NCBI GenBank assembly: GCA_017623975.1
Contig: JAGANX010000060.1
Coordinates: 56,711-120,710 of the forward strand
Length of the DNA stretch: 64,000 nt
From: Clostridia bacterium
GTDB lineage: Bacteria; Bacillota; Clostridia; Oscillospirales; CAG-272
Direction of reading: 5' to 3'
A program made the translations under genes and the position numbers. The notes under the pieces were generated by a model. The model was not told where the DNA came from, did no database searches, and was given only the letters and a program-made list of their open reading frames with translations. Within the stretch, counting starts at the first letter, position 1; each line of letters starts with the position of its first letter. Below are positions 9,727 through 57,479 of the stretch, one piece after another.

Positions 9727-10782
9727 ATGAGCAGTTCTATTTTCGCAGGCAAAACTTTAATGATAACCGGTGGCACAGGCTCCTTTGGTAATGCTGTGTT
9801 AAACAGATTTTTGAAAACCGATATTGGGGAGATTAGAGTATTTTCCCGTGATGAAAAAAAGCAGGACGATATGCGCCACGAATTTCAGGCAAAAATGCCC
9901 GAGGTGGCAGAGAAAATAAAATTCTACATAGGTGATGTAAGAGATTTGGCAAGCGTTAAAAACGCAATGCACGGAGTAGATTACATTTTCCACGCCGCTG
10001 CATTGAAGCAGGTTCCTTCCTGCGAGTTTTTCCCTATTGAAGCAGTAAAAACAAACGTTTTGGGTACTGAAAACGTGCTTACTGCCGCTATTGAAGCCGG
10101 GGTTAAAAACATAGTTTGCCTGTCAACGGATAAAGCAGCGTACCCTGTAAACGCAATGGGAACAAGCAAGGCGATGATGGAAAAGGTTATTGTTGCAAAA
10201 TCAAGAACCGTTTCTCCCGAAAAGACAAAGATATGCTGTACAAGATACGGTAATGTTATGTGCTCCCGTGGCTCTGTAATTCCTTTGTGGATTGACCAAA
10301 TCAGAGCAGGCAAGGATATTACAATTACTGACCCTACAATGACACGCTTTATTATGTCACTTGATGAAGCGGTTGACCTTGTTTTGTTCGCATTTGAGCA
10401 TGGTGAAAGCGGTGACATTCTCGTTCAAAAGGCTCCTGCTTGCACAATTGAAACACAGGCGAAGGCTGTAATTGAGCTTTTTGATAAGGAAAAGAAAACG
10501 GGTATTAAGATCATTGGTATCCGCCACGGTGAAAAAATGTATGAAACGCTTCTTACAAATGAGGAATGCGCAAATGCAATCGACCTTGGCAACTTCTACC
10601 GTGTGCCTTGTGATAAGCGCGGACTTAACTATGATAAATACTTCAAGGATGGCGATAAGGAAAGAAATACCTTGTCCGAGTTTAACTCCCACAATACGGA
10701 GCTTTTGGATGTAGAGGGTGTTAAGGAAAAGCTTCTTTCCTTGGCATATATAAGAGAAGAGCTTGAAAAGGATGCTAAGTGA
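9727..10782 (+). CDS. fnlA: UDP-N-acetylglucosamine 4,6-dehydratase/5-epimerase (FnlA/CapE/WbjB type)
   Basis: 351 aa. N-terminus GKTLMITGGTGSFGNAVLNRFL...IRVFSRDEKKQ is typical of CapE/FnlA. SDR core motifs STDKA..P.N.MG.SK are present. Confidence 0.85.
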   Translation: MSSSIFAGKTLMITGGTGSFGNAVLNRFLKTDIGEIRVFSRDEKKQDDMRHEFQAKMPEVAEKIKFYIGDVRDLASVKNAMHGVDYIFHAAALKQVPSCEFFPIEAVKTNVLGTENVLTAAIEAGVKNIVCLSTDKAAYPVNAMGTSKAMMEKVIVAKSRTVSPEKTKICCTRYGNVMCSRGSVIPLWIDQIRAGKDITITDPTMTRFIMSLDEAVDLVLFAFEHGESGDILVQKAPACTIETQAKAVIELFDKEKKTGIKIIGIRHGEKMYETLLTNEECANAIDLGNFYRVPCDKRGLNYDKYFKDGDKERNTLSEFNSHNTELLDVEGVKEKLLSLAYIREELEKDAK

Positions 10783-14769: not shown

Positions 14770-14813
14770 ATAATGGTATAAAAATGAAAAAACTAATTTT
14801 AGGAGGAATCTTT

Positions 14814-17800
14814 ATGGATATTAAGCAAATGATAAGACCTTATAAACGCCGCTTAGTAGTTGAGTCACTTATCAAGGCATCTGCGTTTGGCATTTTCTTC
14901 GGTCTTTGCTTAACACTCGCTATGGCAGTAGCATTCAGATTTGTGCCTGCTAACAAGTACAGCATGCAGCCCGGCTACTTGCTTGGTGCTATCCTTGCAG
15001 GCGTTGGATGCGCTGCAATTGTTGGTACAGTTATCTACATCGTACGTTACAGATATGGAATCAAGGTGATCGCAAAAAGGATTGACGAGCTTGGACTTGA
15101 CGAGCGCGTTAGTACAATGATTGAGTATCAAAACGACCCATCCTTTGTTGCCAAGCTTCAAAGAGAGGACACACAGGCTCGTATGTCCGGTATGACAGTT
15201 AAGGCAATGAAGATTAGACTACCGATAAGAATTTTATCCGGCTGTCTTGCAGTTATGATGGTTCTTCTTTTGACACTTAACATTTATGCAGCTGATGAAG
15301 CACCTTACCCACACACAAAGTTTGACTCTCCGGGTTACATCAAGAATCTTGAAGATATTCTTGACAACTCCGAAATTTCAGATGAACACAAGGAAGTTAT
15401 TCAGGACGTGCTTGACCGCTTTGAATCTATTCTTAACAGCGATATCAGCAAGGAAGAAATGCTTGATGCAATTCAAAAGCTTGATAAAGAGCTTAAAGAC
15501 TATTTGAAGCAAGAGCTTGAAAAGAGAGATGAAATTCTTGATGCAATGAAGGAAGATGAGCTTATGAAGGACTTGGCTGACGCTATTGAGTCACAAGACC
15601 CTGATAAGATCAAGGACGCTATCGAGGATTTGAAGGAGAAAATTGAAGAACAGCCAACAGAGCAAGAAAAGCAAGATATGGCTGAGCAGATTCAAGATTC
15701 ACTTGAAAATGTTATAAAGGATGCACAGGACAGCGCATTGAAGGATGCTCTTGACCAAGCAAAGGATGATCTTGACAAGGTAATTGAAGAGCTTGAAAAG
15801 ATTGAGCAGGAAAAGAATGAAATTCAAGACCAGATAGACGACAAGCAAGAGCAACAGGATCAAAACGAGCAGCAAAAAGAGCAAAATCAACAGCAGCAGG
15901 AGCAAAATCAAGATAAGATTGAGCAAAATCAGCAACAGATTGAGCAAAATCAAGATAAGATGGAGCAAATAGAACAAGATTCTTCCATGACCGAGCAGGA
16001 AAAACAGGATGCTAAGGAAGAGCTTGAAAAGGAAAATGAACAGTTAAAGCAAGAAAACGAGCAGTTGAAGCAGGAAAACGAAAATCTTGACAAGGAAAAT
16101 GAAAACCTTGACAAGGAAAACGAACAGCTTGAACAAGACAAGGAACAGCTTGAACAGGAAAAGGAAAATGTAAATCAAGACCAATACCAAGAGCAGCTTG
16201 ACAAGACATTTGATGATATGTATGAAAACATCATGGACGCTGTTGAGGAAATGGAAGACTTGAAGGATACAATCGAGCAGGAAAGAGAAGAACTCGATAA
16301 GGCGGAAGAGGAGCTCATGGGCAAGGAAGACAATGCTATTGAGAACGGCTTCGAAAATATCGAGGACATTATCGACCAGTCCAAGGCAGACGAAGAAACA
16401 AAGGACGACATGCGTGAGGATATGGAAGACCTCAAACAAGACCTCGAAGATATTTCCAAGGATGAAAACATGACAGAAGAGGAAAAGACAGAGGCTAAGG
16501 ACGAGGCTATCCACGACAAGCAGGACGAACTTGAAGACGATGCTAAGAAAGAGGACGAGGCTCAAAAGGAAATCGCTGACAATATGCAAAACAGCGAAAA
16601 CGATGTTGTTAAGGATTTGGGTGAAGCTATTGAGTCTAAGGACGAGAATAAGATCAACGATGCCCTTGATAAGATAAAGGAAGAGCTTGACAAGATTGAA
16701 CAGGAAAAGAACGACTTGCAGGATCAAATCAATGATAAGCAAGAAGAAATCAATGACAAGCAAGACCAAATCGACAAAATTCAGGATCAAATCAACGAAA
16801 ACAACAAAAATGAAGAAATGACTGATCAAGAAAAGGCAGAGGCAAACGAAAGCCTTGAAGACCAAAAGAATCAGTTAGAGCAGGAAAAGGAAAATCTTGA
16901 AAACGAAAAGACTGACCTTGAAAATTCAAAGCAAGAGCAGCAGGATAAGGAAGACAGCATAATTGAAGACCTCTTCAATTCAACTGAAAATGCTCCTGAC
17001 TCTGAAATTAAGGACGCAGTTCAAGATTATACAGAAAACCTGGATAAGAGTGAAAACGAGCAGGATCGTGAAGATGCAACAGAGGATGCTAAGCACGATA
17101 TCAACAACGCAATCCAAAAGAACGAAACAAATAAGGAAATCGCTGACGAGCTTGACAATATCCGTCAAGAAATCAACAAGTCACAAGCAAACAAGGAAAA
17201 CAACGATACAATGGAAGACTTGAAGGATGCAATCGAAAACAGCGATGCAAATGCTCAGGACAGAGAAGATGCAAAGGATTGGCTCGATAAGAACAATCAA
17301 CAAATTCAAGACGATATTCTTAACAACGAGAATATGACTGAGCAAGAAAAGAACGAGACTCTTGGTGACAAATACCAAGATATGAAGGACCAAATCAACC
17401 AAGGCATGCAAGAAGATCAGCAGCAGTATGACAAGGATACAGATTCCTTCCAAAGTTCAACTGATGAGAATTTCCAACAAATCGGTGAAGCACTCAAGGA
17501 AAACAATAAAGACAAACTTGAGGGTGCTACTGAAAATATCAAGCAAGAAAATAACCAAACAACTAACGAGGCTTGGGACAAGAACGTTAATGATATGATT
17601 GAAGAGCTTGACAAGATTCTTGGCGATGAAGCGGTTAGTGATGAAATGAAGGATATCGTTTCCGACTACAAGGATTCTCTCCAAAATGCACAGCAAAACA
17701 AGGAAAATGGCACAATCACAGAGGAAGAAGCTAAGGAACAGGTAAACGGTGCAACAGACCAATTCAAGGAAAACCTTGAAGACTTCATGCAAGACCATTT

Positions 17801-18341
17801 TGGCGGTCAAGAATTGGGCAAGGACATGGTTGGTACACTTGACCAAGCACAGGACAACTTGAATAAGGATCCTAACAGCGGTGACAAGCAAGAGGGTGAA
17901 AACCAAGAGGGCGGCGACAAGCAAGAGGGTGACCAACAGCAAGGCGGCGACCAACAGCAAGGTGGCGAAAACCAAGAGGGCGAAACCGATAAGGGTCAAG
18001 AGGGTCAAAAGCCTGAGGACGGCGAATCCTCCGAGGGTCAAAAGCCGGAAGACGGTGAATCCGACGAGGGCGAGGGCGAAAACAAGGAAGAAAATACAGG
18101 TTCTTCCGAAAGCGGTCCACAGGACGGTAACAATAACCAAGGCGAGCATGACCAAATTCAAAAGCCTGAGGATGATGTTGAGCAAGTATTCATTCCCGGC
18201 CTTGGATATGTAACTGTTGATATGCTCTTTGATGAAGAAACACTTAACAAAGAGTTTGATAAGATGTTTGGAAGACCAATCACTGCCGAGGACCGTGAAA
18301 TGATTGCAGCATACCTCGACTTCTTGAAGCAAGATAAATAA
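14814..18341 (+). CDS. hyper-acidic, repeat-built, membrane-anchored low-complexity/coiled-coil protein, function unknown
   Basis: Start chosen at the ATG 7 nt after AGGAGG, 30 nt inside the listed ORF. Three hydrophobic helices lie in the first ~165 aa. The next ~950 aa consist almost entirely of D/E/Q/N/K. A short non-repetitive C-terminal segment reads VFIPGLGYVTVDMLFDEE...AAYLDFLKQDK. Confidence 0.8.
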   Translation: MDIKQMIRPYKRRLVVESLIKASAFGIFFGLCLTLAMAVAFRFVPANKYSMQPGYLLGAILAGVGCAAIVGTVIYIVRYRYGIKVIAKRIDELGLDERVSTMIEYQNDPSFVAKLQREDTQARMSGMTVKAMKIRLPIRILSGCLAVMMVLLLTLNIYAADEAPYPHTKFDSPGYIKNLEDILDNSEISDEHKEVIQDVLDRFESILNSDISKEEMLDAIQKLDKELKDYLKQELEKRDEILDAMKEDELMKDLADAIESQDPDKIKDAIEDLKEKIEEQPTEQEKQDMAEQIQDSLENVIKDAQDSALKDALDQAKDDLDKVIEELEKIEQEKNEIQDQIDDKQEQQDQNEQQKEQNQQQQEQNQDKIEQNQQQIEQNQDKMEQIEQDSSMTEQEKQDAKEELEKENEQLKQENEQLKQENENLDKENENLDKENEQLEQDKEQLEQEKENVNQDQYQEQLDKTFDDMYENIMDAVEEMEDLKDTIEQEREELDKAEEELMGKEDNAIENGFENIEDIIDQSKADEETKDDMREDMEDLKQDLEDISKDENMTEEEKTEAKDEAIHDKQDELEDDAKKEDEAQKEIADNMQNSENDVVKDLGEAIESKDENKINDALDKIKEELDKIEQEKNDLQDQINDKQEEINDKQDQIDKIQDQINENNKNEEMTDQEKAEANESLEDQKNQLEQEKENLENEKTDLENSKQEQQDKEDSIIEDLFNSTENAPDSEIKDAVQDYTENLDKSENEQDREDATEDAKHDINNAIQKNETNKEIADELDNIRQEINKSQANKENNDTMEDLKDAIENSDANAQDREDAKDWLDKNNQQIQDDILNNENMTEQEKNETLGDKYQDMKDQINQGMQEDQQQYDKDTDSFQSSTDENFQQIGEALKENNKDKLEGATENIKQENNQTTNEAWDKNVNDMIEELDKILGDEAVSDEMKDIVSDYKDSLQNAQQNKENGTITEEEAKEQVNGATDQFKENLEDFMQDHFGGQELGKDMVGTLDQAQDNLNKDPNSGDKQEGENQEGGDKQEGDQQQGGDQQQGGENQEGETDKGQEGQKPEDGESSEGQKPEDGESDEGEGENKEENTGSSESGPQDGNNNQGEHDQIQKPEDDVEQVFIPGLGYVTVDMLFDEETLNKEFDKMFGRPITAEDREMIAAYLDFLKQDK
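16032..16170 (+). repeat. 21-nt (heptad) tandem repeat inside the acidic-protein gene
   Basis: Encodes ENEQLKQ ENEQLKQ ENENLDK ENENLDK ENEQLEQ DKEQLEQ EKEN, in frame with the CDS. Confidence 0.9.
17880..18080 (+). repeat. G/Q/E short tandem repeats, including a 33-nt x2 unit
   Basis: Encodes GDKQEGENQEGGDKQEGDQQQGGDQQQGGENQEGE, then GQKPEDGESSE / GQKPEDGESDE (units start at 18003 and 18036). Confidence 0.9.
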
Positions 18342-18374: not shown

Positions 18375-19550
18375 ATGGGATTATTTAACAAGAAAGGTGC
18401 AAATGCACAAGAACCAAAAGTAGAAGAAGCAGTAAACACAGCAGAAGTAGTAAATGAAAACGAGGCTGTTGAGCAGACTGTTGTTGAAAAGATAGAAAGA
18501 AAAGAGCCTGAACAAATTAAGATTGACAAGGAAACCGAAAAGGAGCTTAAACTCTTTGCTGAAAAGTGCGAAAAGATTTTCACAGAGGTTAAGAAGGATA
18601 TTATCGGTCAGACAGAGGTTGTACAATCAACAATTATCGCCATTATTGCAGGTGGTAACGTATTGTTAGAGGGTGCGCCGGGTCTTGGTAAAACCCGTCT
18701 TGTTCGTTCACTTGGTAATGTATTCGATTTACCATTTTCAAGAATTCAGTTTACTCCTGACTTGATGCCTGCGGACGTTACAGGTACTAACATTATTACT
18801 AAGGATGAAAACGGAAACTCTAAGTTCGAGTTCCAAAAGGGTCCTATTTTCAGTAACATTGTTTTGGCGGACGAAATTAACCGTGCTACTCCAAAGACAC
18901 AGGCTGCTTTGCTTGAAGCGATGCAGGAGCATAAAGTAACAGTTATGGGTGTTTCCCGTAAGCTTGACGAGCCTTTCTTCGTTCTTGCAACACAGAACCC
19001 AATTGAGCAGGATGGTACATACCCATTGCCTGAGGCTCAGATGGACCGTTTTATGTTCAAGATTTTAGTTCCAAATCCATCCGCTGAGGAGCTTGGCCAA
19101 ATCGTTACAATGACACAAAAGACAATGGATGAAACAGCATCCGCTGCATGTAACGGTGAGGAGCTTCTTAAAATGAGAGCAGTAGCAAAGACTATTCCGA
19201 TTGCATCCGAGGTTCTTGAATATGCAATGGTTATGGTTGCTTCTACTCACGCAAACAGCAAAATTGCAACAGAAACAGCAAAGAAATATATTCGTGACGG
19301 CGCATCCCCTCGTGCGGCTCAGGCGCTTATCACAGCTGCAAAGGTACGTGCTCTTATTAAGGGTAGATACAATGTATCCTTTGATGATATTAACACACTC
19401 GCAGTTCCGGTTCTTCGTCATAGAATTAAACTTGGCTTTGAAGCAGTTACATCTAAGCTCACAGCAGACGATGTAGTATTGGCTCACATTGCTAACCTTA
19501 ATAATGTAAGTAAGACATCACTTATCAACAAAACAAACAAAAAGAAATAA
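18375..19550 (+). CDS. MoxR-family AAA+ ATPase
   Basis: 391 aa. Walker A GAPGLGKT, Walker B VLADEINRA, and LLEAMQE..VT typical of MoxR/AAA_3. Carries an unusual ~70-aa K/E-rich N-terminal extension. Confidence 0.9.
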   Translation: MGLFNKKGANAQEPKVEEAVNTAEVVNENEAVEQTVVEKIERKEPEQIKIDKETEKELKLFAEKCEKIFTEVKKDIIGQTEVVQSTIIAIIAGGNVLLEGAPGLGKTRLVRSLGNVFDLPFSRIQFTPDLMPADVTGTNIITKDENGNSKFEFQKGPIFSNIVLADEINRATPKTQAALLEAMQEHKVTVMGVSRKLDEPFFVLATQNPIEQDGTYPLPEAQMDRFMFKILVPNPSAEELGQIVTMTQKTMDETASAACNGEELLKMRAVAKTIPIASEVLEYAMVMVASTHANSKIATETAKKYIRDGASPRAAQALITAAKVRALIKGRYNVSFDDINTLAVPVLRHRIKLGFEAVTSKLTADDVVLAHIANLNNVSKTSLINKTNKKK

Positions 19551-49635: not shown

Positions 49636-49664
49636 TTGACTTAATTATATAAATGTGATAATAT
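49636..49664 (+). promoter_or_regulatory. sigma-A promoter of the polysaccharide operon
   Basis: TTGACT - 17 nt - TAATAT with a TGa extended -10. Confidence 0.65.
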
Positions 49665-49720
49665 ATAAGTTGAGCATTTGTGTTTACAAGTGTGAAGTTT
49701 TTAACAAGAAGGACGACAAG

Positions 49721-50863
49721 ATGAAAAGAGCGGAAAAGAGAATTGTTTTACCAACTCCTACAATGCATGGGGAGGAAATGAAATTTGTACAGGAAGCGTT
49801 TGACAAAAACTGGATAGCGCCTCTTGGCTTTAACTGCGATAATTTTGAAAAGGAAATGAACGATTATTTAATCCAAGGCATAGATAAGCCTTATTATACC
49901 TTGGCACTTTCCTCCGGTACTGCTGCTTTGCACTTGGCTATGAAGCTGGCAGGGGTAAAGCGTGGAGACAGAGTGTTTTGTTCCAGCATGACCTTTGCTG
50001 CAACCGTTAACCCTGTTTCATACGAGGGCGGTGTGCAGGTGTTTATCGACTCTGAGCCTGATACTTGGAATATGGACCCTGTTGCTCTTGAAAAGGCGTT
50101 TCAAAAATACCCTGATACAAAATTTGTTGTCTTGGCTCACCTTTACGGTACCCCCAGCAAGATGGATGAGATTTTGGCAATTTGTAAAAAGCACGGCGCT
50201 GTTTTGATTGAGGATGCGGCAGAGTCCTTGTCCGCTACATATAGAGGCAGACAAACAGGCACCTTTGGTAAATACAATGCAATCAGCTTTAACGGAAATA
50301 AAATAATTACCACATCAGGCGGCGGTATGCTTATTACTGACACTGAGGAAGCAAGAAAAAAGGCATTTTTCTGGGCTACCCAGTCAAGAGAGCCGTTCCC
50401 TTGGTATCAGCACGAGGAAATCGGTTATAACTACCGTATGTCAAACGTAGTTGCAGGTATCGGCAGAGGTCAGCTTATTCACCTTGATGAGCACAGAGAA
50501 AGAAAAGAAGCGATTTATAAAAGGTATGCTGAGGGGCTCAAAGATGCACCTGTTAAGATGAACCCGTACCTTGACTATACAATGCCAAACTTCTGGCTTT
50601 CCTGCTTAACTATTAATGAGGGTGTAGGAGTTACTCCGCTTGAACTTGCAGAAAAGCTTAACGAGGCTAATATTGAAACAAGACCTATTTGGAAGCCGAT
50701 GCATATGCAGCCTGTTTTCAAGGATAATGATTTTATATCAGCATACGACAAGCCTGTTAGTGAGGACATTTTTGCCCGTGGTCTTTGCTTGCCATCGGAT
50801 ATTAAAATGACTGTTGAAGAACAGGATTTCGTAATTGAAGCTATAAAGGAAAGTTTAAGATAA
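49721..50863 (+). CDS. DegT/DnrJ/EryC1-type sugar aminotransferase (PglE/EpsN-like)
   Basis: Start at MKRAEKRIVLPTPTMHGEE (RBS AGAAGGA). Motifs SSGTAALHLA and the PLP-lysine context SFNGNKIITTSGGG. Confidence 0.85.
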   Translation: MKRAEKRIVLPTPTMHGEEMKFVQEAFDKNWIAPLGFNCDNFEKEMNDYLIQGIDKPYYTLALSSGTAALHLAMKLAGVKRGDRVFCSSMTFAATVNPVSYEGGVQVFIDSEPDTWNMDPVALEKAFQKYPDTKFVVLAHLYGTPSKMDEILAICKKHGAVLIEDAAESLSATYRGRQTGTFGKYNAISFNGNKIITTSGGGMLITDTEEARKKAFFWATQSREPFPWYQHEEIGYNYRMSNVVAGIGRGQLIHLDEHRERKEAIYKRYAEGLKDAPVKMNPYLDYTMPNFWLSCLTINEGVGVTPLELAEKLNEANIETRPIWKPMHMQPVFKDNDFISAYDKPVSEDIFARGLCLPSDIKMTVEEQDFVIEAIKESLR

Positions 50864-51624
50864 TGAAAGAGCTTTTACATACTTTAACATCTAACTGGTG
50901 GGGCATACTTATAATTTGTGTTGTTGCCCTTGTTCTATGGGTTATCTTATCTGCCCTTTTGTATAGACATTTTTTTAAACGGTTTTATGATATTTTGCTA
51001 AGCGGAATTGCGCTTCTTGTGCTGTCACCCATACTTTTGGTGCTTATTATTCTCGGTGCAATTAAAATGAAGGGCAATCCCTTCTTTACTCAACTCCGTC
51101 CCGGCAAAAACGAAAAAATCTTCAAGCTGATTAAGTTCCGCACAATGACGTGCGAAACGGACGAAAACGGCAATCTTTTACCGGATGAGCAGCGCTTGAC
51201 CAAATACGGTAAGTTTTTGCGTTCAACCTCTCTTGATGAACTGCCTGAGCTTATTAATATTTTCATTGGGAATATGTCAATCGTTGGTCCACGTCCGTTG
51301 CTTGTACAGTATTTGCCTCTTTACAATGAGGAGCAAAGGCACCGTCACGACGTGCGCCCGGGTCTTACAGGCTACGCACAGGTGAACGGTAGAAATGCAA
51401 TTTCTTGGGAAGCAAAGTTCAAGCTTGATGTAGAATATGTACATAGTATTTCCTTGTGGAAGGATATTGGAATTATAATCGGTACAGCTCTTAGTGTTTT
51501 GAAAAAGGAAGGCATCAGCAGTGAAACCTCTGCTACTATGGAGGTGTTCAAGGGAAATGCGGAGCCTGCCTTGGAGGCTGTAACTGAGGAAACAGTTGAA
51601 AAGGAACTTGTAAAGCATGAATAA
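50863..51624 (+). CDS. undecaprenyl-phosphate sugar phosphotransferase (small PglC/EpsL-type initiating enzyme)
   Basis: Motifs KFRTM, DELPELINI..G.MS.VGPRP and PGLTGYAQV. The ATG overlaps the upstream stop (TAATG). Confidence 0.85.
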   Translation: MKELLHTLTSNWWGILIICVVALVLWVILSALLYRHFFKRFYDILLSGIALLVLSPILLVLIILGAIKMKGNPFFTQLRPGKNEKIFKLIKFRTMTCETDENGNLLPDEQRLTKYGKFLRSTSLDELPELINIFIGNMSIVGPRPLLVQYLPLYNEEQRHRHDVRPGLTGYAQVNGRNAISWEAKFKLDVEYVHSISLWKDIGIIIGTALSVLKKEGISSETSATMEVFKGNAEPALEAVTEETVEKELVKHE

Positions 51625-52228
51625 AAAGGTTGTTATTATCGGTGCAGGCGGTCACGCAAAGGTAGTTGCCGATATTGTTAGGAGCAACGGAGACACTGTC
51701 GAGGGCTTTTTAGATGATTCCTTTATCTGTGAAAGGGAATTTTACGGTTCAATCGTAATCGGAAAAACAACGGACTACACTCGCTATGCTTCAAAATGCT
51801 ACTTTATAGTCGCTATTGGTAACGGTACAGTGCGGGAGAAAATAGCCTCATTAACCGATTGCAAATGGTACACTGCAATTCATCCAAGCGCGGTAATTAG
51901 TGACAGTGCGGTAATTGGAGAGGGCAGTGCTATAATGGCAAATGCTGTTATAAACGCTGATGCCAATATAGGTAAGCATGTTATTGTAAATACAGGTTCA
52001 ATTGTTGAACACGATTGTGAAATAGACGACTATTCACATATTGCACCCAAAAGCGTTGTATGCGGCGGTACTAAGATCGGAAAGCATGCTTGGCTTGGTA
52101 CAGGCAGCACAACGATACAGGCTATTGAGGTTTGTGACGGTGTTACTGTTGGTGCAGGCGGTGTTGTTGTTAAAAATATTGTTGAAGCGGGAATATATGT
52201 TGGCGTTCCCGCTAAAAGGATAAAGTAA
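51617..52228 (+). CDS. NeuD/PglD-family sugar N-acetyltransferase
   Basis: N-terminus VVIIGAGGHAKVVADIV followed by a C-terminal left-handed beta-helix hexapeptide region. Overlaps the upstream gene by 8 nt. Confidence 0.8.
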   Translation: MNKKVVIIGAGGHAKVVADIVRSNGDTVEGFLDDSFICEREFYGSIVIGKTTDYTRYASKCYFIVAIGNGTVREKIASLTDCKWYTAIHPSAVISDSAVIGEGSAIMANAVINADANIGKHVIVNTGSIVEHDCEIDDYSHIAPKSVVCGGTKIGKHAWLGTGSTTIQAIEVCDGVTVGAGGVVVKNIVEAGIYVGVPAKRIK

Positions 52229-52256: not shown

Positions 52257-53087
52257 ATGGCTATTACATTGATGTATATTACAAATCGTCCCGATGTCGC
52301 AAAAATAGCACAGGATGCAGGGGTTGACAGGGTATGGGTTGACCTTGAATATAAAGGCAAGGAAGAACGCCAAGCAGGAATGAATACCGTAAAATCCAAG
52401 CACACAGTTGAGGATGTTAAGGCTCTCAGAGCAGTAATTGACAAATCCTCACTTATGGTAAGGGTAAATCCATTGGATGATGAGTCAGAGGATGAGATAA
52501 ACAAGGTTATTGAAGCAGGCGCAGACTATATTATGCTTCCTATGTTCAAGACTAAGGCAGAGGTAGAGCGCTTTATTTCCTTAGTTGGCGGTAGAGCAAA
52601 AACTATGCTCCTTTTGGAAACAAAGGAGGCTGAGGAGTGTATTGAGGAATACGTAGGCTTGCCGGGTATTGACGAAATACACATTGGTCTTAACGATTTG
52701 CACCTTGCACATAAAATGACCTTTATGTTTGAGCTTGTGGCAAACGGCACCGTTGAAAGGCTTGCTAACATATTAAAGGCACACAACGTGCGCTTTGGCT
52801 TTGGCGGCTTTGCAAGAATCGGCTACGGTATTTTACCTGCTGAAATGATTTTAACACAGCACTATGCCTTGGGCTCGGAAATGGCAATTTTATCAAGAGG
52901 CTTTTGTGATGCCAATGCAAAGGAAAATATTGATGAGGTTCGCGCTGACTTTATTGAGGGTGTAAATAACATAAGACTTAAAGAGAAGGAAATTCTTTCT
53001 TATAGCAAGGCACAATTTGAAAATAATTTTGAGGGAATAAAAGAGAAGGTTTCACAAATTGTAGAAAGCATTAGGAGTAAGAAGTGA
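52257..53087 (+). CDS. HpcH/HpaI aldolase / citrate-lyase-beta family protein
   Basis: 276 aa with a TIM-barrel aldolase-like pattern (RVWVDLE, MVRVNP, YIMLPMFKT, LLLETKEA, IHIGLNDL). Confidence 0.6.
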   Translation: MAITLMYITNRPDVAKIAQDAGVDRVWVDLEYKGKEERQAGMNTVKSKHTVEDVKALRAVIDKSSLMVRVNPLDDESEDEINKVIEAGADYIMLPMFKTKAEVERFISLVGGRAKTMLLLETKEAEECIEEYVGLPGIDEIHIGLNDLHLAHKMTFMFELVANGTVERLANILKAHNVRFGFGGFARIGYGILPAEMILTQHYALGSEMAILSRGFCDANAKENIDEVRADFIEGVNNIRLKEKEILSYSKAQFENNFEGIKEKVSQIVESIRSKK

Positions 53088-55177
53088 AAAAAATCTGTAT
53101 GATAACAACCGTATCCTTAACTCTTAAAAGCTTTGTTTTGGATACGGCAAAGCATTTGCACAATGAATGTGGTTATGATGTGACATTGATTTGTAATAAT
53201 GACGAGGAGTTTGCAAAAAGCTTGCCTGAATATATTCATTATATTCCTGTGAAAATGGCGCGCGGAGTTAACCTTAGCGGCTTTGGAGCAATAAAAAAAT
53301 TCAAGAAAATCTTTAAAAGAGAAAAGTTTGATATTGTTCAATATTCAACTCCAAACGCTTCATTATATGCAAGTATAGCTGCTAAAAAAGCCAAGGTTCC
53401 CGTAAGGCTGTATTGCCAATGGGGTATTAGATACGTTGGCCTTGGCGGAGTTGCGAGAAAAATATTTAAGTTTCTTGAAAAGCAGGTTTGTAAAAACTCT
53501 ACTCACGTAAGGGCTGTTAGTCCCTTGAATATGGAGTTTGCCATAAAAGAGGGCTTATATACACAAAATAAGGCAAATGTAGTTGGCAGGGGCGGCACTA
53601 TTGGTGTTGATATGCAATCTTACGATATTAACAAAAAGCAGGAATGGAAAAGCGAAATCAGAAAGCGCTACGGCATATCAGATACTGATTTTGTATTTGG
53701 CTTTGCAGGAAGAATTTCTGCTGATAAGGGCTGCACAGAGCTTTTAAGCTCATTTAAAGAAATATCCGAAAACACAAAGAACGCAAGGCTTTTGGTTGTC
53801 GGTCCCTGTGAGGAAAGCTGCGGTGTTCCCGAGGAGCTTTTGTCTTGGGCAAGGTCAAGCAATGCGGTTGTGTTTACGGACAAGATAGATAACCAAAGAA
53901 TGAAGGAGTACTATTCCGCTATGGATGTGCTCGTTCATCCAACGTACAGAGAGGGCTTTGGTATGGTAATTCAAGAGGCTGGCGCCTTGGGCGTTCCTAC
54001 AATTACCACAAGAATACCCGGCGCCTCCGAGGTAATGGTGGAAAATGAGTCTTGTTTACTTGTAGAGCCTAAAAATGCTGCTGCATTAAAGGGCGCAATG
54101 CTTGAATTGGTAACAGATAAAGAAAAGGCTGCATCCTTAGGCGACGGTGCATACAAAATGGTTTGTGAGTGCTACAACCGTCCCATTATGCTTGCGGGTC
54201 AGGAAAAGGACTACGAAAGACTTTTGAAAAAGGACAAGGATTTTGAAAGAATAGTTTTGTCCGATAAAATTATTAGTAATTATGATTTTCCAAGCGACAC
54301 ACAGGTGAAGTGTGTGAGCTTTGATAGCCTTGACAAATTTAACGGCAATGACAAGGTTGTGGCAATTTGCGGCTCACGCGCGATGGCTATTAAATGTGAA
54401 AAAATGGACTTGCCATCCTTAAAGCTTTTTCAGCTTACAAGCGCAGGCTTTGACGGTGTTCCCTGCGAAGCATACGCAAGGCGCGGGGTGAAGGTTGCAA
54501 ACGCAGGTAGCGTTTACAGCGCACCCATTGCTGAAACTGTTGTATTTGGAATTTTGCAAATGGCAAAGAAGCTGCGCAAAAATCCAAATAACAGGCACTT
54601 CAAAATCAGGCGCGGTTACGATACTATAACTGAGCTTAATGGGAAAAACGTGTTAATTATGGGTGCCGGTAACATTGGTACTGCTGTGGCAGACAGGCTT
54701 CTCGGCTTTGGCGTAACAATTGACGGTTATGACCCGTATTGTGCGCCGAAATCCCAGTATAGTGCAATTTTAAGGACAAAGGACCAGCTTAAAGCACAGC
54801 TGTATAAATACGATTATATCGTTTCTACCTTGCCTGATAATGAAGCGACAAGGGGCTTTATAAACAAGGAATTGTTTGCGTGCATGAAGAAAACGGCAGT
54901 TATTATAAACGTAGGCAGAAAAGCGGTATTTAATAACGGTGATTTTTATTACGCACTTAAAAAGAAACAAATTGGTGGGGCAGTTCTTGATATGTTTGAA
55001 AAGCTACCTAACCCAATTACAAACAAGTTCAGAAGATGTAAAAACGTAATTGTGCTTCCCGGTGTTTCTGCTATTTCAAGGGAAGTTAACGGTAGGTTGA
55101 AGGACCATATGTATAATAACGTCAGCGCTATGCTTGATGGTAGAGCTGTATCAAACGTAATTAACGAGGTGAAATAA
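53084..55177 (+). CDS. fusion protein: GT4 glycosyltransferase (N) plus D-2-hydroxyacid-dehydrogenase-fold domain (C)
   Basis: 697 aa with a GTG start overlapping the upstream stop (GTGA). The N-terminal ~375 aa form a GT-B/GT4 domain (REGFGMVIQEAGALGVPTI). The C-terminal ~310 aa have the 2HADH fold with NAD motif IMGAGNIGTAVADRLLGFG..D and INVGRK. Confidence 0.75.
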   Translation: MKKICMITTVSLTLKSFVLDTAKHLHNECGYDVTLICNNDEEFAKSLPEYIHYIPVKMARGVNLSGFGAIKKFKKIFKREKFDIVQYSTPNASLYASIAAKKAKVPVRLYCQWGIRYVGLGGVARKIFKFLEKQVCKNSTHVRAVSPLNMEFAIKEGLYTQNKANVVGRGGTIGVDMQSYDINKKQEWKSEIRKRYGISDTDFVFGFAGRISADKGCTELLSSFKEISENTKNARLLVVGPCEESCGVPEELLSWARSSNAVVFTDKIDNQRMKEYYSAMDVLVHPTYREGFGMVIQEAGALGVPTITTRIPGASEVMVENESCLLVEPKNAAALKGAMLELVTDKEKAASLGDGAYKMVCECYNRPIMLAGQEKDYERLLKKDKDFERIVLSDKIISNYDFPSDTQVKCVSFDSLDKFNGNDKVVAICGSRAMAIKCEKMDLPSLKLFQLTSAGFDGVPCEAYARRGVKVANAGSVYSAPIAETVVFGILQMAKKLRKNPNNRHFKIRRGYDTITELNGKNVLIMGAGNIGTAVADRLLGFGVTIDGYDPYCAPKSQYSAILRTKDQLKAQLYKYDYIVSTLPDNEATRGFINKELFACMKKTAVIINVGRKAVFNNGDFYYALKKKQIGGAVLDMFEKLPNPITNKFRRCKNVIVLPGVSAISREVNGRLKDHMYNNVSAMLDGRAVSNVINEVK

Positions 55178-56154
55178 TGTTTTTTAGTATAATAATCCCT
55201 GTTTACAACGTGGAAAAGTATTTGTGTCAGTGTGTTGACAGTATTCTTGCTCAAAGCTTTAAGGATTATGAGTTGATTCTTGTCGATGACGGAGCAAAGG
55301 ATAATAGCGGCAAAATATGTGACCAATATGCGGAAAAGGATGAACGCATAAGGGTTATCCACAAGCCTAACGGCGGCGCTGCGGATTCTCGAAACGTGGG
55401 CACGCAAGTGGCGCAGGGCGAGTACATAATTTACATAGATAGCGATGATTATATCGACAGAGCTACATTTTTAGAGGAGCTATATGAAAAGGCCCAAAGC
55501 GGAGCAGACATAATTTGTTATAAATTCAAAAAATATTTTGAAAATAGCGGTGAATTTGGAAATTGCAGCTTCAAAATTCCGGATTTGGAAAAATGCGATA
55601 CGATGGCAGACAAATTAAAGGCGTTGGTTAGTAACGATGCATTTTATTGCTCTCCTTGGTCGAAAACAATAAAAAATAGCCTTCTCAAAGAAAATGGAAT
55701 TGAGTTTGAAAAGGGCTTGCTCGGTGAGGACCAGGATTGGTATTACCGTGTAATATTGTCTGCAAAAAGCATTGACGGAATTGATGAGGATTATATAGTT
55801 TACAGGCAAACAGCCAACTCAACATCGAGGTCATGGAAAACTAAAAATTTAACTGATTGCTTGGGCATTATTCAAAAATGGACCGGAAAAATGCAGACCT
55901 CGAATTTGGATGATGAGCTTAAATATGCTATATTTGCTTCACTTGCAAAGCTGTATTGCAATCTACTTATAGGATATACAAATTTTAAAAGCAAAGAGAA
56001 AAAAGCTCACTATAAGGAGTTAAGGGAGCTATCGTATCTTTTGAAATATGACCTTAACCCAAGGACAAAGACCTTTAATAAGATAAAGAGATTGTGTGGG
56101 TTTAGGCTTATGATGACTTTTTTAAAGGTGCTTTGCAAGGTAAGGAGTAAATAA
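55177..56154 (+). CDS. family 2 glycosyltransferase
   Basis: Motifs SIIIPVYNVEKYL, DDGAKD and YIDSDD (DxD). Confidence 0.85.
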   Translation: MFFSIIIPVYNVEKYLCQCVDSILAQSFKDYELILVDDGAKDNSGKICDQYAEKDERIRVIHKPNGGAADSRNVGTQVAQGEYIIYIDSDDYIDRATFLEELYEKAQSGADIICYKFKKYFENSGEFGNCSFKIPDLEKCDTMADKLKALVSNDAFYCSPWSKTIKNSLLKENGIEFEKGLLGEDQDWYYRVILSAKSIDGIDEDYIVYRQTANSTSRSWKTKNLTDCLGIIQKWTGKMQTSNLDDELKYAIFASLAKLYCNLLIGYTNFKSKEKKAHYKELRELSYLLKYDLNPRTKTFNKIKRLCGFRLMMTFLKVLCKVRSK

Positions 56155-57479
56155 TGGAGAATAAGGAATTTCCAAAGGTGCTTGTCACATCCATAAACGC
56201 ATGGCGAGACAACACAGGAATTAACACGCTTATAGATTTTTTTAAGTGCTGGGATAACCAAAGGGTAGCGCAGATATATACAAGGGCATCCTTGCCTAAA
56301 ACAACTGTTTGTAACGAGTTTTTCAGAATTTCCGAGCCTGTTGTTATGAAAAGTGTTTTAAAGCGTAAGCTTAAAACGGGCAGCGTTGTTGAAAATGAAA
56401 CAGACGGTACAGAAAATAAGGGCTTGGAGGAAGAGCAAAAAATATACGCAAAGAAAAAGGGTAAATTCAGCGGACTTCTTGGCTTTGTAAGAGAATTGGT
56501 TTGGAAATTTGGAAAATGGAAAACCAAGGAGCTTAATGAGTTTATAGACAACTGTCAAGCAGACGTTCTTTTTATGCCAATTTATCCAACTGTATATATG
56601 GGTAGATTACAAAAATACGTTATGAAAAGAACGGGTAAGCCTGTTGTTTCATACATTGCGGATGATAACTACACCTTTAAGGCGGTGCCTAAAAACCCGA
56701 TTTCATTAATTCATAGGGCTTGGCTTAGAAAATATGTTAAATACATAATAAGAAACAGTGAAAAGCTTCTCGTTATAGCACCTAAGCAGAAGGAAGAATG
56801 TGACAGAGTTTTCGGAGTGAATAGCGAAATTTTAACAAAGGGCATTGAGTTTTCCTTGTATCCATATGAGGAAAAGCCGCTTTCAAATCCGATAAAAATG
56901 GTTTACACCGGCAAGCTTATTATAGGTAGGTGGAAGTCTCTATCTAAAATTGCCGAGGCGCTGGGGGATATAAATAAGGATGGAACTAAAATCGAGCTTG
57001 ATATTTATACAACGGATAGCTTGACGTCTGAGCAGCAGGTTGCACTAAATCGTAACGGATGCTCTGTTAAGGGCGCACTTACTTTAAGCGAGGTGCAAGA
57101 GGTACAAAAGCAAGCCGATATTCTTGTTTTTGTTGAAAGTCTTGACAAAAAGTATAAAAATGCGGCTCGTCTTTCATTCTCAACAAAAATTACAGACTAT
57201 TTAAAGAGTGGTAAGTGTATATTTGCAATAGGAGATAAAGATATAGCTCCCATTGATTACTTTAATCGCTATGATTCTGCGGTTACAGCCACAAGCTATG
57301 ATGAGATAAAGATGAAGCTTGAAAATATAGCATCAAATACTAATATCATAAGCGAGTACTCTAAAAAAGCATATGATTGCGGCGTAAAAAATCATAGCAA
57401 GGCAGAATTGAACGAGCTTTTGATTAATACTATCAAAAATGCAAGCCACAAAGCTGAAAGGAAGGATACAAATGAGTGA
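56154..57479 (+). CDS. uncharacterised GT-B-like protein (paralogue A)
   Basis: 441 aa. Shares blocks with the 59734-60990 product (KWKTKEL, SYIADDNY vs SYVYDDIY, RLSFSTKITDYLKSGK vs RLSFSTKIVDCLESG). The C-terminal half resembles a Rossmann-like GT-B lobe. Confidence 0.5.
   Translation: MENKEFPKVLVTSINAWRDNTGINTLIDFFKCWDNQRVAQIYTRASLPKTTVCNEFFRISEPVVMKSVLKRKLKTGSVVENETDGTENKGLEEEQKIYAKKKGKFSGLLGFVRELVWKFGKWKTKELNEFIDNCQADVLFMPIYPTVYMGRLQKYVMKRTGKPVVSYIADDNYTFKAVPKNPISLIHRAWLRKYVKYIIRNSEKLLVIAPKQKEECDRVFGVNSEILTKGIEFSLYPYEEKPLSNPIKMVYTGKLIIGRWKSLSKIAEALGDINKDGTKIELDIYTTDSLTSEQQVALNRNGCSVKGALTLSEVQEVQKQADILVFVESLDKKYKNAARLSFSTKITDYLKSGKCIFAIGDKDIAPIDYFNRYDSAVTATSYDEIKMKLENIASNTNIISEYSKKAYDCGVKNHSKAELNELLINTIKNASHKAERKDTNE

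Follow-up and report, generated by a model that had tools for sequence, protein, structure and literature searches.

A 2-hydroxyacid-dehydrogenase-like domain without its Glu/His catalytic dyad, fused to a glycosyltransferase in a conserved module of gut Clostridia with an aldolase-like partner

The Arg-Glu-His catalytic triad of the D-2-hydroxyacid dehydrogenases (2HADHs) is conserved in almost all members of this family, for which 22 subfamilies are described (PMC6303947). Within the triad, Arg binds and polarizes the 2-oxo acid, His is the acid/base, and Glu stabilizes the His in its protonated state. Among the exceptions, formate dehydrogenases carry Gln or Asn in place of Glu, SerA type IIIK has Lys in place of His, and in the archaeal subfamily X4 (PDB 1qp8), whose function is unknown, about half of the members have Trp in place of His and have lost the Glu (PMC6303947). 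Formate dehydrogenase also illustrates that hydride transfer can proceed in the 2HADH fold without a proton step, and the 2HADH knowledgebase paper mentions no glycosyltransferase as partner or fusion of any member (PMC6303947). Here, we analyze a protein in which a 2HADH-fold domain without Glu and His is fused to a family 4 glycosyltransferase (GT4). It is encoded in a 64,000-nt stretch of DNA (the window) from Clostridia bacterium (CAG-272), which spans positions 56,711 to 120,710 on the forward strand of contig JAGANX010000060.1 in assembly GCA_017623975.1. The open reading frame, with a GTG start, occupies window positions 53084 to 55177 on the plus strand, as do all other window features given below, and encodes 697 aa, of which residues 389 to 697 (54248 to 55174) form the 2HADH-like domain. 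Directly upstream lies a gene for a protein resembling the HpcH/HpaI aldolases. In public sources the fusion has no name, and the HpcH-like protein is labeled merely "aldolase."

By eye, the first-pass annotation of this DNA had read Leu and Gly at the positions of the catalytic Glu and His, with the substrate Arg and the motif for binding of nicotinamide adenine dinucleotide (NAD) retained, and rigorous alignment bears out both the register and the retained residues. In pairwise HMMER alignments to 1wwk, 8hpg, and human PHGDH, L641 (in LDMFEKLP; 55004 to 55006) aligns with the Glu of "..EP", and G660 (in NVIVLPGVS; 55061 to 55063) aligns with the His of "PH," both with high posterior probability. 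The same register emerged from a MAFFT alignment of 139 sequences, comprising the domain itself and those 138 of its 150 best matches from 1.84 billion representative proteins that reach 240 aa or more, and from an alignment of 33 full-length fusion proteins that are 53 to 92% identical. Arg-Glu-His was present in 121 of the 123 matches scoring at most 140 bits, the remaining two being an Arg-Asp-His protein and a sequence truncated at the His column. All 15 complete matches at 187 bits or more, which represent the Glu/His-less clade, combined the Arg with Leu, Ile, or Phe and with Gly (in one case Ser, in one Arg). Position 641 is accordingly occupied by Leu, Ile, Met, Val, or Phe throughout the 33 fusions and the 15 clade representatives (Glu in 99% of the canonical proteins), and position 660 by Gly in every one of the 33 fusions and in 13 of the 15 representatives (His in 99% of the canonical proteins). 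Neither of the stretches in question, FEKLPNP and VLPGVSAIS, offers a His or Glu that could rescue a different register and make the domain an ordinary Arg-Glu-His dehydrogenase.

What the domain has kept is the family's two-domain fold, in which a Rossmann NAD(P) domain interrupts the substrate-binding domain, and the cofactor site. In Pfam, 2-Hacid_dh_C (PF02826; residues 503 to 659, 127 bits) is nested in 2-Hacid_dh (PF00389; residues 440 to 694, 40 bits), both above their cutoffs, and Foldseek matched the domain to 5mh6 and 8hpg with template modeling (TM) scores, relative to the target, of 0.72 to 0.74 (0.63 to 0.74 with 1gdh included). The dinucleotide-binding GxGxxG motif reads GAGNIG (residues 527 to 532; 54662 to 54679); its G527, G529, and G532 are invariant in the 33 fusions and kept in at least 14 of the 15 clade representatives. 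Seventeen residues downstream follows D550 (54731 to 54733), the acidic residue that sets NAD specificity, and R612 (in INVGRK; 54917 to 54919), the Arg of the triad that holds the substrate carboxylate, varies neither within the clade nor among the 123 canonical proteins. NCBIfam produced sub-threshold matches alone, to phosphoglycerate, glyoxylate, and lactate dehydrogenases, and automated annotation of this part of the protein would wrongly yield "phosphoglycerate dehydrogenase" or "glyoxylate reductase."

While the two substitutions noticed at first thus stand, the change turned out to be broader. Canonical 2HADHs share 29 columns with a conservation of 85% or more. The clade retains 18 of these in 13 or more of its 15 members, including the cofactor-pocket positions, R612, and D636 (the Asp of LD.F), but seven are replaced together in every clade member, namely W509, G613, V637, E641, L643, L649, and H660. 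R432, R510, and Y512, on the other hand, are invariant in the Glu/His-less clade only, with E667 nearly so; within the fusions, R612, D636, P642, and G660 are invariant. The R510-G-Y512 stretch (54611 to 54619) lies beside the lost Trp509, within the only long low-confidence loop of the structural model (residues 498 to 513), in which an interface between GT4 and the 2HADH-like domain is predicted (predicted TM score, 0.79). The Glu/His-less proteins, which are mostly standalone and about 310 aa long, were monophyletic in 97 of 100 neighbor-joining bootstraps, and the dyad was therefore lost once. Judged by these alignments, the domain is a member of the 2HADH superfamily by fold and cofactor site; because two of the three defining catalytic residues are missing, it does not, in our view, qualify mechanistically as a 2-hydroxyacid dehydrogenase.

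The closest described parallel is subfamily X4. Its Pyrobaculum member PAE1175 (1qp8), itself a significant sequence match of the window's domain (E = 5.5e-14), likewise keeps the NAD pocket and the Arg while His and Glu are replaced, the latter by aliphatic Val. However, X4 is archaeal, has Trp at the His position, is changed in only about half of its members, and has no described link to a glycosyltransferase or aldolase (PMC6303947), whereas the clade described here is bacterial (Clostridia), monophyletic, has Gly at the His position, and is tied to a GT4 and an HpcH-like gene. Since X4 is the only described case of losing both residues, the present clade is the second, and a bacterial one.

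At 90% identity, proteins with the fused architecture of about 697 aa fall into some 50 independent clusters, drawn from NCBI, ENA, and Logan; three contigs encode exactly the window protein, and one related cluster holds 12 members of exactly 697 aa each. As first proposed, it joins a complete GT4 to a complete 2HADH-like domain, both recovered by Pfam, and the GTG start of its gene is shared with the stop of the HpcH-like gene (52257 to 53087) in a 4-nt overlap (GTGA). At the junction, a five-residue linker, DKDFE (residues 384 to 388; 54233 to 54247), stands where the unfused form has its stop codon, a spacer, and the next start codon: the window protein reads "...DYERLLKK-DKDFE-RIVLSDK...", where unfused loci read "...DYEKLLSK", a stop codon, and then "MRIVLTDK...". 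The surrounding residues (382 to 388, linker included) share a mean pairwise identity of just 17% among fusions. Both gene ends are intact and in frame at this point, which shows the fusion to be the loss of a stop codon between adjacent genes. The recurrence in independent assemblies and the in-frame junction, combined with the agreement of three alignments on the register, leave practically no room for the idea that the dyad was misplaced or that the fusion is an assembly or frameshift artefact.

Fusion is nonetheless the minority state, and three separate genes are the normal form. The fused form occurs in 2 of 14 reference-genome loci and 1 of 8 metagenome loci, or about one in seven overall; elsewhere the genes are separate but tightly packed, some with 4-nt overlaps. 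Three loci (L003 to L005) with identical synteny carry the genes apart, coding for an HpcH-like protein of 282 aa, a GT4 of 383 aa, and a 2HADH-like protein of 310 aa, the last of which already reads "...FERVPNP...VLPGVSAIS."

The three genes belong together far beyond the window. An HpcH-like gene and a GT4 accompany the Glu/His-less 2HADH in 14 of 14 reference-genome loci that carry this clade, and an HpcH-like gene is also present in three further metagenome loci; where the 2HADH is only 38 to 42% identical, the loci contain both partners as well. The survey that the first-pass annotation had proposed thus revealed strict co-occurrence with HpcH (17 of 17 loci), and this across four gene orders (HpcH-GT4-2HADH, HpcH-DegT-PglC-PglD-GT4-2HADH, GT4-HpcH-2HADH, and GT4-2HADH-HpcH). 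The hosts of the 14 loci are uncultured gut and rumen Clostridia (Oscillospiraceae, Acutalibacteraceae, Congzhengia, Faecousia, Faecalimonas) plus one metagenome-assembled genome of the Syntrophomonadaceae. In addition, the reciprocal fusion exists: HpcH-GT4 proteins of 667 aa occur in loci without any 2HADH, and several other loci also combine HpcH and GT4 without the third partner (L001, L032, L037, and L039 are among the loci of these two kinds). The GT4 is therefore the hub of the module, HpcH its constant partner, and the remodeled 2HADH a frequent but optional third part.

Glycan loci are mosaics, and the GT4 taken alone looks generic, so one might suspect that the three genes are mere neighbors in a variable polysaccharide locus and share no pathway. 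Co-occurrence in 17 of 17 loci over a range of 38 to 92% identity and four gene orders, together with independent fusions of GT4 to each of the other two partners, makes this very improbable. Rather, the trio is a conserved functional unit of lipid-linked glycan loci of the PglC/DegT/PglD, bacillosamine-type class, and its two-way fusions are a "Rosetta-stone" signal that joins three generically annotated or unannotated families in one pathway. Literature searches on HpcH combined with a glycosyltransferase and a 2HADH, and on genes for lactyl or carboxyethyl ethers, returned nothing relevant.

PglA is the GT4 that adds the second sugar to undecaprenyl-diphosphate-linked N,N'-diacetylbacillosamine (Und-PP-diNAcBac), and it is also the best structural match to the hub of the module. 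The GT4 domain (residues 1 to 381; 53084 to 54226), of the retaining GT-B class, is matched in Pfam over residues 1 to 360 by PF00534 (Glycos_transf_1, 114 bits), PF13477 (49 bits), and PF13439 (43 bits), with Glyco_trans_4_2 among the family names. Foldseek placed Campylobacter concisus PglA (8dvz, 8dqd) first, at target TM scores of 0.79 to 0.82, followed by MshA and BshA (about 0.8). Both hallmarks of the family, a GT-B fold of two Rossmann domains and the EX7E motif, are present; the latter (E290...E298 in REGFGMVIQE; 53951 to 53977) has its Glu pair invariant across the 33 fusions, and standalone orthologs of 378 to 388 aa are about 65% identical to the fused domain. Genes for PglC, PglD, and DegT lie directly upstream, as would suit a PglA-like enzyme, but the domain is only 18 to 19% identical to PglA, which is a single-domain protein without aldolase or dehydrogenase partner. 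Model and gene context are most simply read as those of a transferase that would add the second sugar to Und-PP-diNAcBac or a close analog. The earlier suggestion of a specialized enzyme that transfers an acid finds no echo here, the domain looking like an ordinary PglA-type transferase. Some GT4 relatives of 765 aa, which had seemed to carry an unknown C terminus, proved to be tandem GT4-GT4 fusions and irrelevant to the GT4-2HADH architecture (L006:8001-10301 and L007:2067-4367). In their loci, the genes for DegT and PglC precede those for a GNAT acetyltransferase, a PALP enzyme, and an ATP-grasp ligase: the scaffold is the same, the tailoring set a different one.

The constant partner, a 276-aa protein encoded at 52257 to 53087, is predicted to be a divergent branch of the metal-dependent class II pyruvate aldolases. 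Pfam PF03328 matches at 45 bits (cutoff, 25) over residues 9 to 151 only, and the AlphaFold2 model (predicted local distance difference test, 93.4; predicted TM score, 0.90) is a TIM barrel followed by two long C-terminal helices (residues 225 to 275). A profile of the family searched against the PDB retrieved HpcH/HpaI aldolases as best matches (E = 2e-8), and Foldseek matched the model best to 3qz6, 4mf4, 7et9, and 4b5w (TM scores, 0.57 to 0.69). By an ungapped HMMER alignment of residues 105 to 150 with residues 133 to 178 of 4b5s, E121 (52617 to 52619) and D147 (in IGLNDLH; 52695 to 52697) correspond to the HpaI metal ligands Glu149 and Asp175, and both are invariant in 21 diverse family members. 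So is R69 (in VRVN; 52461 to 52463), which lies inside the Pfam-aligned stretch and, by pattern and position, is the presumed equivalent of HpaI Arg70. The DxEH stretch around HpaI His45 reads, by eye, D29-L-E31 followed by a variable residue (Tyr, Thr, or Val). The protein thus shares with HpaI, YfaU, GarL, and SwHKA, its best profile and fold matches, the barrel, the metal ligands, and, presumably, the Arg of the "VR" motif. The relationship is remote, however, with 13 to 18% identity among the aldolase matches, TM scores of about 0.57 to 0.69, and 37 bits. Moreover, the family has an invariant IGLNDLH around the Asp where class II aldolases have a GPxDL-type motif, and only the family has the two-helix C-terminal extension and an invariant N-terminal block (D24, R25, D29, E31, K35, R38, Q39). 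The IGLNDLH motif had also raised the suspicion of a barrel of the phosphoenolpyruvate-utilizing type (Enzyme I/PPDK), with enolpyruvyl transfer and a MurA/MurB-like route to a lactyl ether. That idea was dropped, as profile and Foldseek searches of the PDB yielded HpcH/HpaI aldolases, pyruvate kinase, and CitE-like lyases and no such domains.

Does the remodeled 2HADH domain still work? Against its closest relative (L025, 92% identity), the ratio of nonsynonymous to synonymous substitution rates (dN/dS) is 0.035 for the 2HADH part, 0.027 for its NAD subdomain, 0.056 for GT4, and 0.018 for HpcH, values that are approximate because dS is near saturation (0.8 to 1.3) between the two compared sequences. 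Mean pairwise identity among the fusions points the same way: at 0.656, the NAD subdomain exceeds every other part of the protein, ahead of the complete 2HADH domain (0.616), GT4 (0.611), and the linker region (0.17). Along with the recurrence of the fusion, the monophyly of the clade, and the joint replacement of seven pocket positions, these figures show a domain that is neither artefact nor decaying remnant and is under strong purifying selection. Variation at the specificity position is informative as well. Of the 33 fusions, 29 have Asp at position 550 and 4 have Ala, while Arg stands at position 551 in exactly four; across the clade, this stretch reads GYDPY, GYARH, GYSRS, GYNRT, and the like, with Ala, Ser, or Asn replacements that are often followed by Arg, His, or Lys. 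Such changes at D550/P551 suggest switching of the NAD/NADP type, as in cofactor-using enzymes.

The domain might instead be inert, a pseudo-dehydrogenase that serves GT4 as a subunit by binding NAD(P)(H) and a carboxylate and by presenting, scaffolding, or sensing redox state, much as in CtBP-type NADH sensing; the first-pass annotation had preferred a reading of this kind, a module that binds a nucleotide or acid and presents an acid to the transferase. Several features fit such a role: both proton-relay residues are lost in every member, and the His is needed for canonical turnover; the plant CtBP homolog AN provides a precedent for a 2HADH fold without catalytic residues (PMC6303947). The coupling to GT4 is tight, with adjacency everywhere and fusion in one locus of seven, and the module occurs without any 2HADH in many loci, as would be expected of an accessory subunit. 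Yet the pattern is not one of relaxation, the pocket having been rebuilt coordinately with two new Arg and a Tyr invariant and a Glu nearly so, and the retained cofactor pocket with its NAD/NADP-type switching is typical of enzymes that consume their cofactor. The exceptional conservation of the NAD subdomain speaks in the same direction, though all of these features would be compatible with a binding role, too. On balance, we regard the inert subunit as the main rival explanation, a serious one that is only somewhat less likely than the reading favored below. Because the cofactor pocket is kept and switches type, the pocket has been rebuilt coordinately, and dN/dS is very low, we lean toward a working, neofunctionalized protein and, within that, prefer a noncanonical reductase.

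Clues as to what such a reductase might act on come from the wider HpcH-like family, to which 7,984 protein clusters were matched. A metagenome scan recovered at least 540 relatives, and 80 loci were kept for clustering of neighboring genes. The family is consistently found in glycan loci next to a PglC-type transferase, which in 54 of these 80 lies within three genes of the HpcH-like gene. Three recurrent locus types stand out. Type A is that of the window, with a GT4 and with or without the Glu/His-less 2HADH; DegT was present in 7 and PglD in 8 of 12 loci examined. Type B (26 of 80 loci, including L045, L052, L055, L058, L062, L064, L067, L074, L076, and L079) follows the order PglF-like dehydratase, HpcH, a protein resembling ornithine/diaminopimelate decarboxylases (PF02784, dependent on pyridoxal phosphate), PglC, and a class IV aminotransferase (PF01063). 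Neither DegT nor PglD was found within 7 kb in 21 of 23 type B loci examined. In type C (about 11 loci; L041, L042, L043, L046, L049, L057, L070, L082, L084, L086, and L090), PglC and HpcH are followed by a 2HADH of about 300 aa and often by an orphan protein of 526 aa, again with neither DegT nor PglD nearby in 9 of 9 loci examined. The absence of both genes from types B and C, first seen at a 40% identity threshold, held at a relaxed E value of 1e-5. The type C 2HADH is canonical, with a complete Arg-Glu-His triad (NISRG...LDVFEEEPL...ITPHNSFV). The 526-aa protein had no match in Pfam and nothing significant in a PDB sequence search; by eye, it shows a PP-loop-like motif, SLTGGCDSKT.

Since HpcH is followed by either a canonical 2HADH or a class IV aminotransferase plus decarboxylase, its product would be a 2-oxo acid that is reduced or transaminated at C2, a function that this gene context implies. 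The earlier proposal that the 2HADH-like part handles a 2-oxo acid made by the aldolase thereby gains support, if of an indirect kind, from the downstream partners in types B and C. As these two types also lack a sugar aminotransferase, the 4-keto sugar nucleotide made by the PglF-like enzyme becomes a plausible aldol acceptor for HpcH in such loci. Type B, for its part, hints at how an amino-alkyl or amino-acid substituent of a sugar might be made.

We therefore tentatively favor, at somewhat less than an even chance, a reading in which the trio adds an acidic, pyruvate-derived group to a glycan by way of a remodeled, noncanonical reductase. From a pyruvate enolate stabilized by Mg2+, the HpcH-like enzyme would make a 4-hydroxy-2-oxo-acid unit, which might be a free acid or, as we think likelier, a three-carbon acidic branch on a keto-sugar nucleotide from a PglF-type dehydratase. 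The 2HADH-like domain would hold this unit by its 2-oxo-acid end, with R612 and backbone amides as contacts, would bind NAD(P)H as well, and would process C2 by hydride transfer without the His-Glu proton relay. A proton might come from another group such as Y512, or the substrate might need none, being an iminium or otherwise preactivated form. GT4 would then transfer the acidic sugar as second residue onto Und-PP-diNAcBac, with fusion or close adjacency serving the hand-over between steps, and the net result would be an acidic pyruvate-derived substituent in the surface polysaccharide. Such a substituent is plausible.

A parallel for the logic of this scheme exists in yersiniose biosynthesis, where YerE adds a pyruvate-derived carbon branch to a 4-keto sugar nucleotide and the reductase YerF tailors that branch. 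YerE depends on thiamine diphosphate, transfers a two-carbon unit, and has no homology to the trio, so the parallel is functional only and, for the present locus, hypothetical. As for reduction without an acid/base pair, Bsp5 (6p2i), deposited as an acyclic imino acid reductase, is a fold-level match to the 2HADH domain; we take it as a possible lead to proton-independent chemistry and nothing firmer.

A number of observations weigh against the acidic-group reading and its reductase. Loss of the His normally cripples 2-oxo-acid reduction (PMC6303947), which makes a noncatalytic role a serious alternative, and the candidate replacement residues Y512 and R510 sit in the sole long loop that was modeled with low confidence. 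The saturation of dS blunts the selection argument. HpcH-GT4 pairs occur without a 2HADH in many loci, so the 2HADH domain is an optional accessory. The clade could not be traced to canonical 2HADHs partnered with HpcH either: that bipartition appeared in 0 of 100 bootstraps at equal distances (1.87 versus 1.92), the best-scoring canonical match (P0261) belonging to the HpcH-partnered group and the closest by distance (P0263) to a housekeeping context. In related loci, a PglF-like gene lies inside the locus, but the window locus has none. The sole PglF/CapD-like (Polysacc_synt_2-type) homolog in the window, at 9748 to 10566 (33% identity over 307 aa), is some 40 kb away; the 4,6-dehydratase for a bacillosamine-type first sugar is therefore not encoded beside the locus. 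Finally, to our knowledge, no member has a known activity, ligand, or glycan structure, so that every chemical step is our deduction, and we know of no natural product to cite for the keto-sugar branch.

The scheme could also be simpler, in that pyruvate and a small aldehyde are turned into a small free acid by the HpcH-like protein and its 2HADH-like partner, with no branch on a sugar nucleotide; the acid would end up as an N-acyl or O-acyl group attached by another enzyme, or as an aglycone that GT4 glycosylates in the way BshA does malate. HpcH/HpaI enzymes normally act on small 4-hydroxy-2-oxo acids, to judge from the PDB neighbors, and one of the top structural matches to the GT4 domain is BshA, itself a GT4, whose acceptor is the 2-hydroxy acid L-malate. 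A PIG-L deacetylase, the family of BshB, follows the trio in one locus (L023), as in the BshA/BshB pathway; an Acyl_transf_3 gene (Pfam) lies downstream in the window; and the type C orphan could be a ligase, going by its PP-loop-like motif. PglA, however, is the better match, and the full PglC/DegT/PglD set suits a second-sugar transferase; the window locus is of the undecaprenyl-phosphate-linked polysaccharide kind and has no thiol-pathway context, and no ligase or coenzyme A-activating enzyme was seen in it. In types B and C, the HpcH gene is flanked by a PglF-like dehydratase and PglC and there is no sugar aminotransferase, an arrangement that is also easier to understand if HpcH acts on the keto-sugar. 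We consider the free-acid scheme improbable, though well short of negligible. The PIG-L (LmbE/BshB-type) gene itself stands directly after GT4-2HADH-HpcH at L023:4388-5068 and L024:4388-5068.

Extended to the family at large, the acidic-group reading would make HpcH-like aldolases beside PglC-type transferases the entry to an undescribed route to C-branched or pyruvate-extended acidic sugar nucleotides, with the pyruvate enolate joined to the 4-keto product of a PglF-type dehydratase. The branch would be tailored in three ways: by reduction through a canonical 2HADH, by transamination plus decarboxylation, or by proton-independent hydride transfer through the GT4-docked or GT4-fused 2HADH offshoot. 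This combined proposal we put forward as a speculation, slightly less probable again than the free-acid scheme. If it is true, abundant gut Clostridia would produce bacterial sugars of a new class, and catalysis in the 2HADH fold would have found a new solution.

The finding is not categorically new; it is a neofunctionalized or pseudo-enzymatic 2HADH clade within a conserved aldolase-GT4 module, with a hint of undescribed pyruvate-derived sugar modifications in abundant gut bacteria. Its value is in part mechanistic. Because the clade has lost both residues yet is under strong purifying selection, and because the sole described parallel is archaeal and of unknown function, the clade makes a good test of what the 2HADH fold can do without an acid/base pair, be it proton-independent hydride transfer, imine reduction, or pure ligand binding. 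The module also gives a way into the surface-glycan chemistry of uncultured gut Oscillospiraceae, Acutalibacteraceae, and Lachnospiraceae, and the three tailoring variants of the HpcH-like family suggest a modular, possibly new route to acidic or amino-alkyl sugar substituents.

In the window, the trio is embedded in a set of glycan genes. Upstream, a DegT/PglE-type sugar aminotransferase (49655 to 50863; PF01041, 307 bits) is followed by a PglC-like small phosphoglycosyltransferase of the Bac_transf family (50863 to 51624; PF02397, 198 bits), which would start the lipid-linked chain, and a PglD/NeuD-type N-acetyltransferase (51617 to 52228; Pfam PglD_N and Hexapep, and TIGR03570 at 218 bits, above its cutoff). 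For the DegT gene, the true start is probably not the listed GTG but the Met of MKRAEK some 66 nt downstream, at about nt 49721, because the ortholog in the closest relative (L025) has 380 aa. Downstream, a GT2 glycosyltransferase (55177 to 56154; PF00535) is present in 12 of the 14 reference-genome loci, as are homologs, at 42 to 73% identity, of the 441-aa protein encoded next (56154 to 57479). The latter had no match in Pfam, NCBIfam, or PDB sequence searches; it is under purifying selection (dN/dS, 0.043) and is probably a further member of the same pathway. By eye, its C-terminal half looks GT-B-like.

Two further genes of the window, unrelated to the trio, caught our attention. At 14784 to 18341, a 1,185-aa protein combines N-terminal membrane segments with an extremely acidic, low-complexity body rich in Glu, Asp, Lys, and Gln, the coding of which accounts for an AT skew of 0.47 at 16 to 18 kb. 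Directly after it, at 18375 to 19550, lies a gene for a 391-aa protein that, by eye, resembles a MoxR-type AAA+ ATPase.

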